Below are positions 50,468-60,120 of a stretch of DNA of 64,000 nt, in pieces; within the stretch, counting starts at the first letter, position 1; the number at the start of each line of letters is the position of its first letter. The stretch spans positions 188,021-252,020 of the forward strand of contig CAXXKA010000005.1 in assembly GCA_963668625.2 (NCBI GenBank), written 5' to 3'. The notes beneath the pieces are model-generated. The model was not told where the DNA came from, made no database searches, and worked only from the letters and a program-made list of their open reading frames with translations. This DNA comes from an uncultured candidate division Zixibacteria bacterium. Lineage in GTDB: Bacteria > Zixibacteria > MSB-5A5 > UBA10806 > 4484-95. The translations under genes were made by a program, and so were the position numbers.

Positions 50468-52747
50468 TTATTTGAGATATAACAGCTTGCGGTGAGATGT
50501 TATTTCTTGATTTGACAACCTCAGATAATACTGCCCGGTGGCTATCCCCTCGGGAGACCAGACTACGCTGTGATGACCTGGAAACAGGTAATCATCAATG
50601 ACTGTGGCTACGTGACGGCCTAATATATCGTAGATATCGGCGGTAATCTCCCCTGCCTCGGGCAACGTGAATTCGATACGGGTGGCTGCGTTGAACGGGT
50701 TGGGATAGGCTGCGATATCGATGGTTGAGGATAATATCGATGGTGAGGATTCCACGGCGGTGCCGGTTCGGGTTATACTCCAGACTGATTGCTGATCGGT
50801 GGCTAAATATATTCGGTTGGTATCAGAGGGATCGATGACAGTAATGGCATTACTGTATAAAGTGTTCAAATCGTTATTAAATGGTTCCCATGATTGCCCA
50901 CCATCATGAGATTGAAATAACCCGTGGTGGTGTGAGTTAACATAAATATTATCAGGGTTAAAAGGATTTACTGCTATACCTGATAGCCAGAAATATCCGC
51001 TTTCATAGGTAATATTATTAGTAATATTATCCCAGCTATCGCCGCCATCACTTGATTTAAATATCCCTTTCCCATAAGTGGCTATATAAATGATATCACT
51101 ATTATTCGGATCAAATTCGATATCGGTGCCACCATAGGGGTCTTCGGGCAAGTTAAACTCTTCCCAGGAATCGCCTTTATCCTCAGATTTAAAAAACCTG
51201 CCTTGATTGTCGCTAACTACAATTATAAATGGCTCTGAACTACTTGCATTTATGCATCGTATAGTGACATAATCGAAAGGTGAAAAAATACATTTATTCC
51301 AGCTCACGCCTAAATTGTCAGAGCAATAAATCCCGCTACTGCCGCACACGAATAGCCGTCTGTTGCCGTTATCATTTAAGATTGCTACCTTATAGAATAC
51401 AGAAGTGTCAGGAAGACCATCCGTGAATAATCCCCATGTATTGCCCCCATCAGTTGATTTGTAAATCCCACAATAATTCGCCCGATCCCAATGAACCAAT
51501 CCCCCATAAATGCAATTGCTGTCTACAGGATCAGTTAGTACATTAGTCGTGAAGTACGTTGCTTGTGAGCACCAGATACTATCATGAATCAAATCCCATT
51601 GCTCGCCGCAGTTATCAGTCTTATAAAGATGTGATGCCGAATTCAGATATAGTTTGTTTGAATTGAAATGATTAATTGTCAATCCCCAGCAATTCGCATG
51701 CGAAATGTTTTGACTTATCTTCTCCCAGCTAGCGCAGTCATCGGTAGATTTATATAGGCCGTTGTATAAAACAGATAAATACCATGTTCCCGAGAGACTG
51801 TCATATACTATATTATCAGTGAAATAACTATCCAGGCCGCCATTTGAATCCTCCCAGGTTTGGCCGCCATCAATGCTTTTTAACAGGCCATTATCAGAGG
51901 TGCAGATAACAACAGTATTATGATCGAGTGGTGATACGAATACTCCGCGAACGCTGCTGTATTTAAGCGAATCAGGTGTAATATCAACCCAGCTTTCCCC
52001 GGCGTTGTATGATTTTGCCAGACACTGGCATTCCTCCCCATAAAGTGTTTCTCCGCATATATACAGTATGTTATTATCGATTGGATCAATGGCCATATCA
52101 TGAGCCGTATAAGTCGTATCGAGATTATTATGAATGCATTCCCAGCTATTACCGAGATTCTCGCTTTTGTAGATTGCTTTATGATATAGTCCAGAATGCG
52201 TGATCAGATATACGCGGTTTGTGTTAATAGGATCAACGCAATATTTTTGTACATAAAGTCTTTCAAGATTCATAGTCTCCCATGTTGCTCCACCATCAAG
52301 AGATCTAAAATTGTAAAATAAGCCACAACAGTAAAGTATATTTGGATATTGAGGATGTATCTCAAAACCAAATAAATCACCTACATAATGATCAGGTAAG
52401 ATAACATAATTCCAATTCTGGCCGCCATCGATTGTTCTGAGTAATCCTTTGTCTGTTGCTATATAGATAGAGTCCTGATTCGTCGGGTGAAATTTAATAC
52501 GTAATACGGTGTTTGGAATTGTTTCATTGTCGAGATGAGACCAATTTTCGCCGGCATCATCGCTTTGATAAATACCGTACTCTCCTGTCCCGAGAAATAT
52601 TTTTCTATTGTCAAAGGGGCTTATTGATATAGCAGCAATCTTGGCTTCATAAGGCCCGTTTGTAGTCCAGGTGTTTTCCTGACCGATAACAATATTGAAA
52701 AGGCACAAGATCGAAAATATTATAAAAATATGTCTTTTACTTATCAT
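50468..52747 (-). CDS. Secreted BNR/VPS10-type beta-propeller protein with CTD (cassette A)
   Basis: Many SxDGGxTW Asp-box repeats; AYPNPFN...KLLYLK. Confidence 0.9.
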   Translation of the reverse strand: MISKRHIFIIFSILCLFNIVIGQENTWTTNGPYEAKIAAISISPFDNRKIFLGTGEYGIYQSDDAGENWSHLDNETIPNTVLRIKFHPTNQDSIYIATDKGLLRTIDGGQNWNYVILPDHYVGDLFGFEIHPQYPNILYCCGLFYNFRSLDGGATWETMNLERLYVQKYCVDPINTNRVYLITHSGLYHKAIYKSENLGNSWECIHNNLDTTYTAHDMAIDPIDNNILYICGETLYGEECQCLAKSYNAGESWVDITPDSLKYSSVRGVFVSPLDHNTVVICTSDNGLLKSIDGGQTWEDSNGGLDSYFTDNIVYDSLSGTWYLSVLYNGLYKSTDDCASWEKISQNISHANCWGLTINHFNSNKLYLNSASHLYKTDNCGEQWDLIHDSIWCSQATYFTTNVLTDPVDSNCIYGGLVHWDRANYCGIYKSTDGGNTWGLFTDGLPDTSVFYKVAILNDNGNRRLFVCGSSGIYCSDNLGVSWNKCIFSPFDYVTIRCINASSSEPFIIVVSDNQGRFFKSEDKGDSWEEFNLPEDPYGGTDIEFDPNNSDIIYIATYGKGIFKSSDGGDSWDNITNNITYESGYFWLSGIAVNPFNPDNIYVNSHHHGLFQSHDGGQSWEPFNNDLNTLYSNAITVIDPSDTNRIYLATDQQSVWSITRTGTAVESSPSILSSTIDIAAYPNPFNAATRIEFTLPEAGEITADIYDILGRHVATVIDDYLFPGHHSVVWSPEGIATGQYYLRLSNQEITSHRKLLYLK

Positions 52748-52801: not shown

Positions 52802-53236
52802 TTAATTTGGGGTATAATTATAATAAACTCTAAATGTTGCAGGCGACTCGAAACCTGCTCCCCCTATATATTGTCCTATTGCTAACCTATATTGAGTTTG
52901 TATAGAAACAGTATCTATACCTGTGATTTCTTTTTCTCCGGAACCTGAGAATAAATTAGCGTCTCTACGCCAATCACCACCCTCCAGTTTAAACCACATT
53001 CTTGCCGGATGTGGAGGCGGATCAGAAGTAACAATATATGTTGCCCGCAAATCGGCTCTGTTACCACAGGGATAATGCCATTCACCCGTTTCCCGAAGAT
53101 AATCACCAGTTGCCGTTATCGAATCTCTTTGAACACATTTGTCACCAGCTATCGCTTTGTTCCCGGCACCATCCCCTAAAATGAAAGCAATGCATAATAC
53201 TACCGCTATTATTGCTAATATGCAAAAACGCTTCAT
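52802..53236 (-). CDS. Small secreted protein (cassette A)
   Basis: Signal peptide; C...TG...PCGN pattern shared with 55859-56296. Confidence 0.8.
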   Translation of the reverse strand: MKRFCILAIIAVVLCIAFILGDGAGNKAIAGDKCVQRDSITATGDYLRETGEWHYPCGNRADLRATYIVTSDPPPHPARMWFKLEGGDWRRDANLFSGSGEKEITGIDTVSIQTQYRLAIGQYIGGAGFESPATFRVYYNYTPN

Positions 53237-53300
53237 AGCTTATTCCTTTCAAAAAGAATTATAAATTTAAAACCAAAAACTATTTTGAAAACTCTAATTG

Positions 53301-53396
53301 TCAGCTTGACGAAAGGTGGACTACGCCCCCCCCGTTCGTAAGGTGATATGAAGTAGCAAGGCTTATAAACGCTTTTATTATACGATGTTTCATCAT
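53301..53396 (-). CDS. Leader ORF A with G8 tract (31 aa; 54 aa ending at 53233 after a -1 shift)
   Basis: MMKHRIIKAFISLATSYHLTNGGGVVHLSSS*; GGGGA SD-like site; homologous to leader B with synonymous changes. Confidence 0.65.
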   Translation of the reverse strand: MMKHRIIKAFISLATSYHLTNGGGVVHLSSS

Positions 53397-53447
53397 GATG
53401 ATTTTCCCCAATATCAGAATGTCAAACAATCTCAGATATTCAACTAT

Positions 53448-53475
53448 AAAATAGCTTAAAATATAATCATGTCAA
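53448..53475 (-). promoter_or_regulatory. Putative sigma70 promoter of cassette A
   Basis: TTGACA-N16-TATTTT, conserved at 56511-56538. Confidence 0.55.
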
Positions 53476-53506
53476 GATAATTCTTTTATTGGATATATTA
53501 CTCGGG

Positions 53507-55813
53507 TTACTTTAGATATAACAGCTTGCGCCCTGATGTTATTTCTTGATTTGACAACCTCAGATAATACTGCCCGGTGGCTATCCCCTCGGGAGACCAG
53601 ACTACGCTGTGATGACCCGGAAACAGGTAGTCATCAATGACTGTGGCTACGTGACGGCCTAATATATCGTAGATATCGGCGGTAATCTCCCCTGCCTCGG
53701 GCAGTGTGAATTCGATACGGGTGGCTGCGTTGAACGGGTTGGGATAGGCTGATACGGATAGTTTAGACGGAAGAAGATTATCTTTATTCGTAATTCCAGT
53801 AGGTGTGCGGTTTATTGTCCAGACTGAGCGAGACTCTGAGGCAAAATACAACTTGGTTGTATCGTTTGAGGCAAACATCATTTCACCAACACCATGAGTG
53901 GTATCCATACCAGCATTGAATGACTCCCAAGTTTGTCCGCCATTATGAGTTTGATATATGCCGTAATGATTTGAAGCAACGAAAATATTTAAAGGATTGT
54001 GAGGGTTGATTGTTATACCTGATACCACCGCAGGGGATTCCTCCAGTGGTAAATCGTTGTTTATTTCATTCCAGTTTTCACCACCATCGATCGATTCAAA
54101 TAAACCCAGGTAGCAACTGCCGGCAAATATATGGTTCTTATCGGTAGGATCGAATTCAATATCTATAACATACTCATGGCGTGGATGCTCCGGCAAATCG
54201 GCCGCCTGATGCCAGGAATCACCCCTATCAAGTGATATATAGACATCGTTTTCATCATCGCCTATTGCTACAACATCAGGATTACTGCTTGCTACCTCAA
54301 CTACCAGAATATATCTATTTGTTGGGATACCATTTGAACAGATGCTCCAGTTTTCACCTAAGTCATCGGAAAAATATAAACCATTATCGGAGGCTAAAAA
54401 AATCCTTCTATCATCGCTTGAATAATATGAAATATTCATATCGGTAAAATTGGCATCTTCAGCAAATCCCTCGTTAAAAAAGTCCCAATCATCACCTCCA
54501 TTGATGGAACGATAAAATCCTCTTGAGGGTTGGATGTACCAATTTTCATAAGCGGACGCACAATAAATATAGTCTTGATTGTATCGATCCAACGATACAG
54601 TAAAGATAATATTCTCAGGCGGACATCCAATATCGATACTTTCCCATGACTCTCCCATATTATCTGAAAAGAAAAGCCCGTTATTTGCTGCTGCTATAGA
54701 TATGTTTTGATCAAAATCGCTAACTGCCAAGTCAAATATAGCAGCACAATTCAAATTGTAACTAATTCTCTGCCATGATTCTCCCTCATCAATACTTTTA
54801 TATATCCCATCATGATAGGTACCAAGATAAAGTATAGAATTTGTAGTGTCGATTTCAATTGTGGCTAGTTTTGATTGACTTAATCCATTATTGATTTGAT
54901 ACCATGTATCCCCGGCATCAATGCTTTTTAAAACCCCATCATAACTGGTACAAATAAAAAGGACGTTGCTGTTAGAAGGTAAAACTTTTATGTGCGATAT
55001 CTCAGGGGCTGTAAGTATATCGGGCGTTATATTAATCCAATCATCCCCACCATTAATTGACTTTGATAAACATTCTGTGTTTGGAGGTTGTTCGTAAACT
55101 TTTCTTGACAGGTATATTATATCGGAATTATTGGGATCGATTTCAATATCGGAACCATACCCAACTGTATCAATATTATTTTGGATATTAGTCCAGGTTT
55201 GAGCTCGATCTTCGCTTTTCCATATTCCGAGGCCGTAAGCAAATCCGCTTGCTACGATGTAAATAGTATCTGGATGATGGGTATCAATTGCTATAGATGA
55301 TATCCCGATATTACTAGGGATACCTGGTCTCTGCCATGATTGGCCATTGTCAAAAGTAATCCATTCGTTCATAGGACCACCGGTAATTATTATATTGGGA
55401 TCAGTTGGATGAATAGCTAAGGATCTCAATTCACAATTCCATGACGAAGGTGGTGAAATTTGATACCAATCATCACCGTTATTGTTGGATTTGAATAATC
55501 CCCCAGCAGTAGCAGCATAAACTGTATCAGGTGTAATAGGGTGAAAGTGAATTTCGCGTAAAGTGTTATGAAGCACTGAAGATTCAAGATGATCCCAATT
55601 CGTGCCGTTGTCTAAGGATTTGTAGATACCATTTACAATTGTGCCTATCAAAACAGTGTTTGATTCTTCTGGATGAACAATGATTGTTTTTACTGTGCCA
55701 CCTTGAGGTCCGTTGCATTGCCATTCATTGTCATTTGCTATTGCTACTTGACTTAAAGCTACTATTGATAAAAACATAGTAATTCTAATTATTGAGAGGT
55801 ATTCTCTTGTCAT
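53507..55813 (-). CDS. Secreted BNR/VPS10-type beta-propeller protein with CTD (cassette B)
   Basis: Paralog of 50468-52747; Asp-box repeats; near-identical CTD. Confidence 0.9.
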   Translation of the reverse strand: MTREYLSIIRITMFLSIVALSQVAIANDNEWQCNGPQGGTVKTIIVHPEESNTVLIGTIVNGIYKSLDNGTNWDHLESSVLHNTLREIHFHPITPDTVYAATAGGLFKSNNNGDDWYQISPPSSWNCELRSLAIHPTDPNIIITGGPMNEWITFDNGQSWQRPGIPSNIGISSIAIDTHHPDTIYIVASGFAYGLGIWKSEDRAQTWTNIQNNIDTVGYGSDIEIDPNNSDIIYLSRKVYEQPPNTECLSKSINGGDDWINITPDILTAPEISHIKVLPSNSNVLFICTSYDGVLKSIDAGDTWYQINNGLSQSKLATIEIDTTNSILYLGTYHDGIYKSIDEGESWQRISYNLNCAAIFDLAVSDFDQNISIAAANNGLFFSDNMGESWESIDIGCPPENIIFTVSLDRYNQDYIYCASAYENWYIQPSRGFYRSINGGDDWDFFNEGFAEDANFTDMNISYYSSDDRRIFLASDNGLYFSDDLGENWSICSNGIPTNRYILVVEVASSNPDVVAIGDDENDVYISLDRGDSWHQAADLPEHPRHEYVIDIEFDPTDKNHIFAGSCYLGLFESIDGGENWNEINNDLPLEESPAVVSGITINPHNPLNIFVASNHYGIYQTHNGGQTWESFNAGMDTTHGVGEMMFASNDTTKLYFASESRSVWTINRTPTGITNKDNLLPSKLSVSAYPNPFNAATRIEFTLPEAGEITADIYDILGRHVATVIDDYLFPGHHSVVWSPEGIATGQYYLRLSNQEITSGRKLLYLK

Positions 55814-55858
55814 TTTATCTCCAATAAAGCCCCCCTTGGGAAATTCAATTTAAGTAAT

Positions 55859-56296
55859 TTAGCTACCGCTACTTGCTCTATATGTCGCTGTAATTTCTAA
55901 ATCTTCAAATGAGCCAGCAGCGCCACTAACACGTGTTAGCCTAAGTTCATGACTTGTGCTAGGCCCAACAGGTATCCACTCGCCTGAATCTAAAGAATAG
56001 TCAGTATATGGAGAAAATTCATCTTGTTCAAAGGTCAGGTCAATAGATGTGCCAATAAGGTTAAGTCGTAAAATCGGATTGCCGGAGGTTTCAGATGTCC
56101 TGCTAAAACTGAATGTCCACCATACATTATTATCACACGGATCGTATGCCCCTGTTGTACAAACAGGATTGTTGCTGTCATCAGCAGCTGAACAACTAAC
56201 ATTGCTCTGGCATTGCCCCCAGGCTGTTGTGCTTATTCCCATACCCAGTACCAGTAAAAGACAAAATATCATTGTAAATGTGTTAATTCTATTCAT
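55859..56296 (-). CDS. Small secreted protein (cassette B)
   Basis: Signal peptide; C...TG...PCDN; 145 aa versus 144 aa for its positional partner. Confidence 0.8.
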   Translation of the reverse strand: MNRINTFTMIFCLLLVLGMGISTTAWGQCQSNVSCSAADDSNNPVCTTGAYDPCDNNVWWTFSFSRTSETSGNPILRLNLIGTSIDLTFEQDEFSPYTDYSLDSGEWIPVGPSTSHELRLTRVSGAAGSFEDLEITATYRASSGS

Positions 56297-56356
56297 TGTT
56301 TAATTCCTCTCAAATCAAACTTATAAATTTAAAATCTAAAACTCTCTGAATTTTAA

Positions 56357-56455
56357 TTATAAGCCAGATGAAAGGTGGACTACGCCCCCCCCATTAGTCA
56401 GGAAGCGAATACTTTCTAACCGTATAAACGATTCATATACGCGATGTCTTATCAT
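56357..56455 (-). CDS. Leader ORF B with G8 tract (32 aa; 48 aa ending at 56310 after a -1 shift)
   Basis: MIRHRVYESFIRLESIRFLTNGGGVVHLSSGL*; GGGGGA SD-like site. Confidence 0.65.
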   Translation of the reverse strand: MIRHRVYESFIRLESIRFLTNGGGVVHLSSGL

Positions 56456-56510
56456 GATGCCATTCCCCCGATATTATAATGTCAAAAAATAATTTCAAAT
56501 ATCCATTAAC

Positions 56511-56538
56511 AAAATATGAAAATAAACTATCATGTCAA
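56511..56538 (-). promoter_or_regulatory. Putative sigma70 promoter of cassette B
   Basis: TTGACA-N16-TATTTT, as in cassette A. Confidence 0.55.
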
Positions 56539-58141: not shown

Positions 58142-59095
58142 ATGAAAATAATTATGTCATACAAAATAATAACCTATACTTTTTTATGCCTGATCTTTAC
58201 GCTTTCTTTCTGCAAAAAAAACACGGAACCTGATGATCCCATTATAATAATTGATCCTCCTCCAAATAGAAGTGTCCATGATACCAATCCTACATGGTCC
58301 TCGGTTCATAATCTGATCGCCTATATTCATTATCTTGACGAGGATAGCCTGGTTGATAACAGAGCACGCGGGATTCACCTGATAAACCCCGATGGTACTA
58401 ATGATCAATTTTTCCATGATGGCGGCGGAGCGTTGGCCTGGTTTAGCCTTGACTGGGCTCCTGATGGCAGTTGTTTGCTGGTACGAAATGAAATCGGCTT
58501 ATTTAAAATATCTTATCCTGATAAAGTTATTGATACATTAAGGTATAACATCGATCCAATGTCTTTTTCTTATTTAATGGCGACCTTCTCACCGATTGGC
58601 GATAAAATACTCACAGTTACTAACGGCGGTGATTATGGTGGTATTCATTTAATGAATTCTGATGGATCGGACAATCATAGGATTATTCAACATGCAATGA
58701 GTCCTTTCTGGATTGCTAACGATTCAATTGCTTATATGAACTTTGAACCTGAATTCCCTTATTATTCTTTGTGCATTACAGATACTACAGGGCTTTCTAG
58801 ACGGCAATTACTGGTTAATGATAGCTTATTATATGTGGCAAATATTTCAGCAGATACACATTTTCCAACAAGACGTATCGCCATCTATGGGCCATCTTTT
58901 GATGGCATATACCCCGATGATCTGGGGAAAATGGAACCTGATTGGCAGGAAATAACCCTTCTAACTAATGACAGTGAATATCCCTGTTTCTCTCCCGATG
59001 GTAATCAAGTTGTTTTCACCTATGAGAAAAAGGGCTATGGCGGTTTGTATATAATCAATTGGGATGGTACGAATATGCGTCAGTTGACTGAGTAA
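58142..59095 (+). CDS. TolB-like (PD40) beta-propeller lipoprotein, copy 1
   Basis: LSFC-KKNTEPDD; WAPDG, FSPDGNQVVF and INWDGTNMRQLT repeats. Confidence 0.85.
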   Translation: MKIIMSYKIITYTFLCLIFTLSFCKKNTEPDDPIIIIDPPPNRSVHDTNPTWSSVHNLIAYIHYLDEDSLVDNRARGIHLINPDGTNDQFFHDGGGALAWFSLDWAPDGSCLLVRNEIGLFKISYPDKVIDTLRYNIDPMSFSYLMATFSPIGDKILTVTNGGDYGGIHLMNSDGSDNHRIIQHAMSPFWIANDSIAYMNFEPEFPYYSLCITDTTGLSRRQLLVNDSLLYVANISADTHFPTRRIAIYGPSFDGIYPDDLGKMEPDWQEITLLTNDSEYPCFSPDGNQVVFTYEKKGYGGLYIINWDGTNMRQLTE

Positions 59096-59166: not shown

Positions 59167-60120
59167 ATGAAAATAATTATGTCATACAAAATAATAACCT
59201 ATACTTTCTTATGCCTGATCTTTACGCTTTCTTTCTGCAAAAAAAACACGGAACCTGATGATCCCATTATAATAATTGATCCTCCTCCAAATAGAAGTGT
59301 CCATGATACCAATCCTACATGGTCCTCGGTTCATAATCTGATCGCTTATATTCATTATCTTGACGAGGATAGCTTAGATGATAATAGAGCACGAGGGATT
59401 CACCTGATAAACCCCGATGGTACTAATGATCAATTTTTCCATGATGGCGGCGGAGCGTTGGCCTGGTTTAGCCTTGACTGGGCTCCTGATGGCAGTTGTT
59501 TGCTGGTACGAAATGAAATCGGCTTATTTAAAATATCTTATCCTGATAAAGTTATTGATACATTAAGGTATAACATCGATCCAATGTCTTTTTCTTATTT
59601 AATGGCGACCTTCTCACCGATTGGCGATAAAATACTCACAGTTACTAACGGCGGTGATTATGGTGGTATTCATTTAATGAATTCTGATGGATCGGACAAT
59701 CATAGGATTATTCAACATGCAATGAGTCCTTTCTGGATTGCTAACGATTCAATTGCTTATATGAACTTTGAACCTGAATTCCCTTATTATTCTTTGTGCA
59801 TTACAGATACTACAGGGCTTTCTAGACGGCAATTACTGGTTAATGATAGCTTATTATATGTGGCAAATATTTCAGCAGATACACATTTTCCAACAAGACG
59901 TATCGCCATCTATGGGCCATCTTTTGATGGCATATACCCCGATGATCTGGGGAAAATGGAACCTGATTGGCAGGAAATAACCCTTCTAACTAATGACAGT
60001 GAATATCCCTGTTTCTCTCCCGATGGTAATCAAGTTGTTTTCACCTATGAGAAAAAGGGCTATGGCGGTTTGTATATAATCAATTGGGATGGTACGAATA
60101 TGCGTCAGTTGACTGAGTAA
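59167..60120 (+). CDS. TolB-like lipoprotein, copy 2
   Basis: Differs from copy 1 by one residue (V to D). Confidence 0.85.
   Translation: MKIIMSYKIITYTFLCLIFTLSFCKKNTEPDDPIIIIDPPPNRSVHDTNPTWSSVHNLIAYIHYLDEDSLDDNRARGIHLINPDGTNDQFFHDGGGALAWFSLDWAPDGSCLLVRNEIGLFKISYPDKVIDTLRYNIDPMSFSYLMATFSPIGDKILTVTNGGDYGGIHLMNSDGSDNHRIIQHAMSPFWIANDSIAYMNFEPEFPYYSLCITDTTGLSRRQLLVNDSLLYVANISADTHFPTRRIAIYGPSFDGIYPDDLGKMEPDWQEITLLTNDSEYPCFSPDGNQVVFTYEKKGYGGLYIINWDGTNMRQLTE

Follow-up and report, generated by a model that had tools for sequence, protein, structure and literature searches.

A candidate run-gated, phase-variable arrest leader ahead of secreted-protein cassettes in an uncultured Zixibacteria bacterium

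Introduction

Two gene cassettes in a 64,000-nucleotide (nt) stretch of DNA from an uncultured candidate division Zixibacteria bacterium (contig CAXXKA010000005.1, positions 188,021 to 252,020, of assembly GCA_963668625.2; hereafter the window) are each preceded by a short leader open reading frame (ORF). These leaders, A and B, are interpreted here, with a little more confidence than doubt, as composite devices: run-gated, phase-variable leaders with an arrest motif of the RAPP-like class. Under this interpretation a translated leader ORF would precede each cassette, which encodes a small secreted protein and a large secreted BNR-repeat protein. About 21 codons after its start the leader would meet a hypermutable run of G (G or C in relatives) and then the sequence R-x-P-P, and the length of the run, 7 to 12, would set the phase of R-x-P-P. 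In one phase the ribosome would read RSPP and stall with the Pro-Pro codons in the decoding centre. In the other two phases it would reach an early stop (a TAG after the run, or the end of a short V(V/E)VHL... peptide) and leave. Since run length sets the phase, each cassette would be flipped into or out of the stalling state by slipped-strand changes in its run, changes that are inherited and do not depend on the other cassettes; this would be phase variation by way of an arrest peptide. The stalled ribosome would cover a pyrimidine block, UCCACCUUUC, that is otherwise paired with the downstream Shine-Dalgarno (SD) sequence, and translation of the cassette would be turned on. A change of one base in the run thus probably decides both stalling and expression of the cassette. 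This interpretation is built on the anatomy of the leaders, the conservation of the motif as a peptide, its avoidance in the proteome, and the differences in run length between paralogs, all of which are observed.

The leader family

The 4.3-Mb genome that contains the window was searched with a DNA search and an nhmmer profile, and the leader family was found in nine copies, A and B among them. Each leader is followed by a cassette encoding a signal-peptide protein of 140-157 amino acids (aa) without a Pfam match and then a Sortilin-Vps10/BNR repeat protein of 748-779 aa, which has a Por_Secre_tail-like end at 24-26 bits (under the Pfam cut-off of 27). Two of the nine cassettes are decayed, and a transposase-like ORF has inserted into one. 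As DNA the leaders share about 70% identity, whereas the small proteins of the seven intact cassettes show only 24-28% identity to small protein A, so the regulatory block is far better kept than the genes behind it.

The start of the leader occupies one aligned position, which is ATG in two copies, GTG in five and TTG in two. GGGGGA or GGGGA lies 7-9 nt before this start in eight of the nine copies (GGCGGA in the degenerate copy C6_407). In eight of nine copies the start codon opens a frame with 21 stop-free codons before the run; the other two frames are stop-rich. The initial annotation of the window had proposed a conserved leader that looks translated, and the SD, the start position and the open frame all bear this out. 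Beyond the run, the three frames read RSPP(F/C) plus 7-26 codons, an immediate TAG, or V(V/E)VHL... followed by a stop. RSPP is present in seven of the nine copies; one degenerate copy has ASPP and one copy lacks its 3' part. Because the RSPP frame lacks a start codon downstream of its last stop, it is reachable only through the run. The distance from RSPP to the ATG of the small gene is 88-89 nt in all seven intact copies, and in the five of these other than A and B the RSPP frame stops after 11-15 codons.

Length and phase of the run

Runs of G or C are under-represented in this genome, which has 63 G7 runs against about 156 expected and 16 G8 runs against about 35 expected. The leaders hold 7 of the 23 G/C runs of at least 8 and two of the four of at least 11. 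Across the nine copies the runs are G7, G7, G8 (four copies), G9, G11 and G12. When near-identical leaders were paired (at least 85% identity, gap-free, in the 100 nt upstream), run length differed in five of six pairs. The tandem duplicates C1_10 and C1_13 have flanks that are 98% and 97% identical, yet they carry G11 and G7. Variation in run length between near-identical paralogs fits the idea of phase variation, already raised in the initial annotation, whose proposal that the run sets the phase of RSPP also holds. All three phases are present among the seven intact copies: RSPP is in the start-codon frame in two (C1_10 and C1_13), at +1 in two (C6_401 and C10_226) and at +2, which equals -1, in three (A, B and C6_567).

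A separate observation concerns the two tandem duplicates (C1:10123 and C1:13240). The net difference between them across the run is 3 nt (C+G11 vs T+G7+T), which leaves RSPP in frame in both; the kept in-frame state could reflect chance (1 in 3) or selection.

The run presumably varies within the living population as well. Sequencing runs were used as contigs at a depth of 2-6. One contig of run X3 from the same sample, at a depth of about 6, has G11 at C6_567 where the assembly has G12; no listed contig of run X1 bridges the homopolymer, X2 covers only parts of the stretch, and X5 contributes no contig to it. The phases might instead be homopolymer miscalls, with a constitutive arrest leader and an incidental Gly/Pro run, and the fact that the sole bridging contig is one G off the assembly fits this explanation. 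The genomes are also metagenome-style, with up to hundreds of contigs, their nearest named genomes are metagenome-assembled genomes (MAGs), and seven relatives have R-x-P-P leaders and no run. Miscalling is nevertheless very unlikely as the source of the phases. Outside the leaders, 34 of 77 G/C runs of at least 7 lie within long uninterrupted ORFs, which argues that the assembly is not riddled with homopolymer errors. In addition, the differences reach 4 bases (G7 vs G11, G8 vs G12), beyond typical miscalls, and runs of 7-12 recur at the same position in independently assembled genomes.

The other two very long G runs of this genome are found at C8:593083-593113 (G12, with G7 24 nt further on) and C8:719647-719657 (G11). 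No R-x-P-P was found within 60 nt after either of them, and they could be separate phase-variable sites. Runs of about 26 and about 38 G, in two genomes of the same class (G054:C26:~123501 and G129:C117:~8743), may be assembly artefacts or extreme repeats.

Conservation of R-x-P-P as a peptide

Elsewhere in the order the small protein is present in 15 of 23 genomes (30 matches); it was found in none of 37 searched genomes from other families of the class. Upstream sequence of 400 nt was available for 28 of these genes. R-x-P-P occurs on the sense strand in 18 of the 28 regions, mostly 62-129 nt before the ATG, against 3 hits in 2 regions on the reverse strand, and a G or C run of 7-12 occurs in 11. 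Several of the relatives' leaders repeat the arrangement of the window: G005 has ATG, 21 codons, G7 and TAG; G019:C22a has GGGGA-N4-GTG, about 21 codons and G11; and G006 has GTG, about 25 codons and C10. In G011:C15, R-x-P-P is in frame and the leader ends RAPPF*.

Own and relatives' leaders together, R-x-P-P is present in 25 of 35. Within the own genome, A and B write the Arg of RSPP as CGT, and the other copies write it as AGA. Over the 25 leaders, Arg is encoded by CGT (5), AGA (7), CGA (1), AGG (4), CGG (5) and CGC (3); the x residue is Ser in 12 (AGT 8, TCT 2, TCG 2), Ala in 5, Gly in 4 and others in the rest; and all four Pro codons occur at both Pro positions. That every synonymous codon is used for Arg (six) and for Pro (four), and codons of both Ser families as well, argues that selection acts on the peptide and not on an RNA or DNA word. 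RSPP is thus conserved as a peptide across genera, in support of the initial annotation.

Two variants stand beside these leaders. In three leaders of one genus (L083, L084 and L086, at G015:C78, G012:C21 and G016:C40), a repeated AAAAGGGGGGC(A/G)AAAT(A/T)... unit and runs of G5-G6 lie upstream of RSPP or RPPP, and the R-x-P-P frame is without a canonical start codon. In the two cassettes of G004:C1 (L070 and L085), RLPP is written by a C7 run itself (AGA CTA CCC CCC C) in frame with an SD-linked ATG, and KSPP follows further on in another frame.

The motif is also avoided elsewhere in the genome. Among 3131 ORFs of at least 150 aa (1.2 million residues), RSPP, RAPP and RDPP are each found 0 times, against 6.2, 6.3 and 5.9 expected, and RGPP is found once against 6.6 expected. 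Each of the four is the rarest or tied for rarest among its 12 same-composition permutations. RSPP belongs to the RAPP-like class of proven arrest motifs, as the initial annotation had it (PMC12992588, PMC10987492). RSPP is one of the query motifs that define the RQH family (PMC10987492). RAPP and RGPP cause a robust arrest that is not relieved by elongation factor P (EF-P), and RSPP and RDPP, which rank with the most strongly depleted tetrapeptides, behave as "partially permissive" in ApdA/ApdP (PMC12992588).

The same data bear on the view that the block is untranslated, either a structured 5' untranslated region or a protein-binding DNA site, with the G run paired to CCACC and with open frames that are accidental. 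Nucleotide conservation does span the whole intergenic block and not the ORF alone, RNAalifold pairs the G run with UCCACC, and the N-terminal codons are not conserved as a peptide. This view is highly improbable, however, given an SD-preceded start position that is always ATG, GTG or TTG, a single open frame out of three in eight of nine copies, and R-x-P-P written with synonymous codons across genera and almost confined to the sense strand. The block also has no Rfam match, and its fold is almost without covariation.

A second cassette family

A second, unrelated cassette family lies outside the window in the same genome (G000 C6:626249-634159) and consists of three tandem units. Each unit encodes a signal-peptide protein of 125-132 aa and a protein of 569-579 aa with a secretion-tail-like end. 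Two of the leaders are identical and consist of an SD, ATG, 5 codons, C8 and, ten codons later in the +1 frame, RGPP. From its sequence, this family is an independent case of the same leader logic. The third unit is preceded by a transposase-like ORF of 360 aa at C6:631299-632381; the same ORF is also inserted at C10:~224756-225838, in a leader-type cassette between its small and large genes.

Predicted output through the downstream Shine-Dalgarno sequence

The 16S rRNA of this genome ends in ...GGAUCACCUCCUUU, a canonical anti-SD tail in which CCUCC is present. Among 2072 long ORFs, 335 have AGGAG upstream and 6 have the control word CCTCC, which indicates that SD sequences are in use. Directly behind the run lies UCCACCUUUC(UUUCA), a block that is similar to the 16S tail and has complementarity to the small-gene SD, UGAAAGGA. 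In partition-function folds, at least 94% of the predicted pairing of the downstream SD goes to the RSPP block in five of the seven intact own copies. Masking a 27-nt footprint raises the accessibility of the SD from 0.06-0.32 to 0.31-0.67 in five of the seven (in one example, the probability that the SD is unpaired rises from 0.07 to 0.55). For leader B, CCUUUCA is predicted to pair with the SD AGAGGA and takes 96% of the SD pairing, with a probability of being unpaired that goes from 0.22 to 0.67 upon masking. These folds suggest that a stall would unmask the SD and turn the cassette on, which is the likeliest output; the sign of the effect on the cassette, a presumption from the models, is given no better than an even chance.

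A phase-variation switch could use this block without any peptide arrest. Only the point at which translation of the leader ends would then matter, through ribosome traffic over the anti-SD-like block, Rho access or re-initiation, with CCNCC serving as anti-SD RNA and Pro-Pro being merely slow. The resemblance of UCCACCUUUC to the 16S tail ...UCACCUCCUUUC and its pairing with the downstream SD in five of seven own copies agree with such a switch. The block of the relative G011:C15, CCUCCUUUUU, is perfectly complementary to its SD, AAAAAGGAGG, and the three frames end at different distances from the anti-SD-like block. A switch of this kind is nonetheless decidedly unlikely, as the Arg two codons upstream is kept through all six of its codons (CGN, AGR) and CCNCC often has G or A in the middle, which mismatches GGAGG. 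The purging of RSPP, RAPP, RGPP and RDPP from the proteome is, moreover, what would be expected if these motifs impede the cell's own ribosomes, and SD pairing with the block is not found in most relatives.

Translational coupling was also considered as the route from leader to cassette. The initial annotation held that the RSPP frame ends on the start of the next gene, which is the case in leader A only, one of the seven intact copies. Coupling through an ATGA overlap is thereby ruled out as a general mechanism.

Evidence against the arrest leader and the case for recoding

A number of observations weigh against the proposed arrest leader. The stalling of ribosomes at RSPP is suggested by the class of the motif, and within that class RSPP is weaker than RAPP or RGPP; a motif of the RAPP-like kind does not suffice by itself and needs a compatible N-terminal neighbour (PMC12992588). 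The 21 N-terminal codons of the leader show no peptide selection among close paralogs when compared by eye, and the changes fall mostly at codon positions 1 and 2. By eye, the approximately 25 residues before the motif also contain no signal sequence, where most known members have a localisation signal. Among relatives, R-x-P-P is absent from 10 of the 28 upstream regions and occurs without any run of at least 7 in another 7. The exact core motif had no match in 60 relatives, two genomes of the same genus being included in the 60.

RNAalifold does form an SD helix with the RSPP block, though a weak one (-8.1 kcal/mol, with a covariation term of -0.32). Sequestration of the SD is not seen in A or C6_401 and is shown by only about 5 of 17 relatives. 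As a universal mechanism it is ruled out by A, C6_401 and most relatives. CCNCC could, in addition, be partly conserved as RNA. Variation of the run at the population level consists of a single low-depth contig, and run lengths in an assembly can err by one base. Finally, R-x-P-P is at offset +1 in seven of the eight callable run-bearing leaders of relatives, and since free phase variation predicts no bias, this weighs against it. One source of the bias may be a favoured OFF state; another may be genuine +1 slippage of ribosomes on GGG-G/CCC-C.

The second of these possibilities leads to an explanation in which the R-x-P-P frame is reached by recoding, through a +1 (or -1) slip of the ribosome or stuttering of RNA polymerase on the run. 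The leader would then report the rate of slippage (as set by EF-P, tRNA m1G37 or the supply of Gly- and Pro-tRNA), and run length would only tune that rate. The +1 offset from an SD-linked start is shared by the seven relatives' leaders and the second cassette family, where one third would be expected by chance. The zero frame of C6_401 and C10_226 reads GGG TAG right after an SD-like G run, and the runs consist only of G and C, never of A or T. CCC-C is a documented site of +1 slippage that is restrained by m1G37 and EF-P (PMC7577736, PMC12340085), and the OFF frames of a repeat-bearing gene in Mycoplasma are leaky and can be read by frameshift suppression (bioRxiv 10.64898/2026.04.01.715767). 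Recoding is the strongest of the rival explanations, though as the full account it is unlikely. The own copies need a shift of 0, +1 or +2, so there is no single programmed direction; a quadruplet would suffice for slippage, whereas runs of 8-12 are a signature of DNA instability, and near-identical paralogs differ in run length. In addition, the relatives are not independent samples and some of their start codons were called without a clear SD. The initial annotation had pointed to a -1 frameshift of the X XXY YYZ type. As a general route this is not supported, the shift in own copies being variable and that in relatives mostly +1, and the slippery heptamer G GGG GGC being confined to A and B.

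Recoding is compatible with the phase-variable arrest leader and does not exclude it. The two would be combined in a two-layer switch, in which a heritable run-length bit gates the R-x-P-P stall and +1 slippage of the ribosome adds a graded leak to the OFF state; this combination is possible, though more doubtful than the arrest leader itself. In such a switch the stall, and not the protein product of the leader, would turn on one of many hypervariable secreted-protein cassettes. The leak on GGG-G/CCC-C would be tuned by the translational state of the cell (EF-P, tRNA modification).

Comparison with known systems

The leaders share several features with RAPP-like upstream ORFs (uORFs), which include ApdA, ApdP, the RQH family and the Streptomyces RAPP/RGPP peptides (SecM, listed beside them, ends in RAGP). 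In both, a small ORF on the same strand precedes the regulated gene, R-[A/G/S]-P-P is conserved behind a variable N-terminal part, and the motif is purged from the proteome. The downstream genes of the known uORFs need not be Sec/YidC components, and RAPP-like uORFs precede genes of diverse function (PMC12992588). A structural study of RAPP (PMC10951233) and the original arrest-peptide screen (PMC7897499) have been published. Unlike the known uORFs, the leaders described here contain a hypermutable G/C run 0-12 codons before the motif, and the motif is in frame in some copies only. Only about 25 residues, without a signal or membrane segment, precede the motif, so that sensing of secretion through a pulling force is not open to these leaders. 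The motif is not C-terminal in most own copies but lies 7-26 codons from the stop, although two relatives end in RAPPF* and RGPPK*. The leaders are also multi-copy (nine plus two in one genome) and head cassettes of hypervariable secreted cargo.

The initial annotation had linked the leaders to secretion-related genes. The link is only a loose one: the downstream genes encode secreted cargo rather than components of the secretion machinery, and a localisation signal is missing from the leader. Compared with secretion monitors of the SecM/MifM/VemP/ApdA type, the leader has neither the N-terminal signal nor the downstream Sec/YidC gene. It is thus not a secretion monitor, because the genes downstream encode cargo and the leader is without an export signal. 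CruR is a closer case in one respect, being a RAPP uORF before a non-Sec envelope gene, that for a TonB-dependent transporter (PMC10987492; PMC9426467); arrest was not demonstrated for it (PMC10987492). CruR differs from this leader in being single copy and metal-responsive and in having no homopolymer switch.

The run resembles the poly-G/C tracts that underlie phase variation in Campylobacter, Neisseria, Haemophilus and Helicobacter, in which a G/C homopolymer of 7-12 sets the reading frame. As in other simple-sequence repeat (SSR) systems, there are many independent loci, the products are surface or secreted proteins, and lengths differ between near-identical copies. In known SSR cases the tract lies in the structural gene, where it truncates the protein, or in a promoter spacer. 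Here, by contrast, the tract lies in a separate leader ORF and would switch access to an arrest motif. Poly-G in the 5' region of Moraxella uspA1 modulates expression. An upstream poly-G likewise modulates expression of the surface-protein family encoded by the tpr genes of Treponema pallidum (described for TprL in PMC7864442). Both tracts differ from the run described here: transcription, or a means that is unknown, is given as their route of action, and they are not described as part of a translated leader with an arrest motif. Examples of ON/OFF switching by G tracts internal to ORFs are available for Campylobacter (bioRxiv 10.1101/2022.11.09.515450).

Programmed frameshifting offers a further comparison, and it is one that requires a fixed direction of shift, which the own copies do not share. 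The GGG TAG of C6_401 and C10_226, which follows an SD-like stretch and has its productive frame at +1, resembles the programmed +1 shift site of prfB (release factor 2). Unlike prfB, the family also includes copies that require 0 or +2, and it lacks an autoregulatory logic with a release factor. No literature joining arrest peptides with phase-variable or homopolymeric tracts was found, in a search that did not extend to the uORF supplements of PMC10987492 and PMC12992588. The terms "frameshift" and "phase varia" each have 0 occurrences in PMC10987492.

Leaders A and B and their cassettes in the window

All positions below refer to the window, and both cassettes are on the minus strand. A promoter-like TTGACA-N16-TATTTT lies at 53448-53475 (10 of 12 matches) ahead of leader A and at 56511-56538 ahead of leader B. 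The box is aligned in all copies. A consensus scan gave 18 promoter-like sites in the region against 15.7 in shuffles, which is no excess, so that the promoter call is based on conservation alone. SD-like sequences follow at 53405-53409 in A (GGGGA, 8 nt 5' of the leader ATG) and at 56464-56469 in B (GGGGGA). The minus-strand ORFs predicted in the initial annotation are present with the predicted peptides, at 53396-53301 for A (MMKHR...TNGGGVVHLSSS, with 21 codons ahead of the run) and at 56455-56357 for B (MIRHR...TNGGGVVHLSSGL), and share 18 of 31 residues. The exact G8 runs, which are the proposed switches, are likewise confirmed at 53333-53326 and 56392-56385, and the window contains exactly two occurrences of the invariant 23-mer, where 100 shuffles give an expectation of 0.

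RSPP follows the run at 53314-53325 in A (CGT AGT CCA CCT) and at 56373-56384 in B, in both at offset +2 (-1) from the start-codon frame. In A it would join that frame at G9 or G6. The remainder of the RSPP frame in A (FVKLTIRV...NKL*) occupies 53233-53313 and contains CCUUUC, the complement of the downstream SD; that of B occupies 56310-56372. The stops are as had been described: the RSPP frame of A ends as ATGA on the next start (53235-53233), that of B ends at the TGA at 56312-56310 just 5' of GAGG, and in B a TAA shuts this frame just 5' of the run. The long tail in the -1 frame had been regarded as conserved. It is specific to A and B, however, and of the approximately 13 codons that differ between them by eye only 2 are synonymous, which argues that the tail beyond RSPPF shows no peptide selection. 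The entire intergenic block of about 290 nt is 76% identical between A and B, including about 130 nt upstream of the ATG. In neither A nor B did a consensus scan detect a terminator-like site in the interval from leader to gene, and an Rfam scan of the window at gathering thresholds gave only tRNA elsewhere and no match at the leaders.

Cassette A comprises a small gene with the SD GAAAGGA (53244-53250), whose product is a 144-aa protein with a signal peptide and without a Pfam match (52802-53236), and a gene for a 759-aa protein with Sortilin-Vps10/BNR repeats (50468-52747) and a Por_Secre_tail-like end at 25.6 bits, under the Pfam cut-off. Cassette B encodes a small protein of 145 aa (55859-56296) and a Sortilin-Vps10/BNR protein of 768 aa with a secretion-tail-like end at 24.1 bits (53507-55813). 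The two large proteins are about 40% identical over most of their length but almost the same in their last approximately 80 residues, the secretion-tail region (50468-50720 and 53507-53760, minus strand), which suggests recent gene conversion or recombination between the cassettes. Elsewhere in the window, two tandem ORFs of 317 aa on the plus strand (58142-59095 and 59167-60120) have a lipoprotein-like N-terminus and are almost identical, their translations differing in one residue; the pair looks like a very recent tandem duplication.

Distribution beyond the genome

The lineage is placed here by a single gene, the nearest named TrpRS (70% identity) being that of a Candidatus Zixiibacteriota MAG. 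Judged from the genomes compared, the device appears to be found only in this order. A core pattern of the C6/C1/C10 type gave 0 matches in metagenomes, from which records near the genome of the window may be left out. A metagenome scan with a profile of the large protein, seeded on the generic secretion-tail motif, supplied 80 secretion-tail loci (405 kb). These contain three runs of at least 8 and, on either strand, no case of such a run followed by R[SAGDE]PP, which argues that the device is not a general feature of secretion-tail cargo genes. True relatives among the 80 loci are limited to L110 and L111, each of which sits at the end of a contig with no DNA upstream. A loose pattern (G8, 0-30 nt, MGNNNNCCNCC) was also run over 285 genomes of the phylum. 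Outside the order the reversed control was similar in size, and overlapping matches inflate the counts of this pattern; no claim is made beyond the order.

Implications

Arrest peptides are known sensors and simple-sequence repeats are known stochastic switches; in the literature searched, no report has one working through the other. If confirmed, a mutable repeat placed before an arrest motif would constitute a heritable and reversible ON/OFF bit for operons, with switching that leaves the promoter and the structural genes untouched. Confirmation would also extend RAPP-like arrest to a very short peptide without a localisation signal in a little-studied lineage. The signature of an SD, a start, about 20 codons, a G/C run and R-x-P-P could then be used to find unannotated regulatory uORFs that gene callers miss. 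The cassettes of fast-diverging secreted BNR-repeat proteins, with small-protein paralogs at 24-28% identity, would stand out as probable targets of diversifying selection. If the two-layer switch were true, the same leader would serve as both a genetic memory and a physiological sensor, and this uncultured bacterium of the FCB group would possess a stochastic "one of many" repertoire of surface and secreted proteins.

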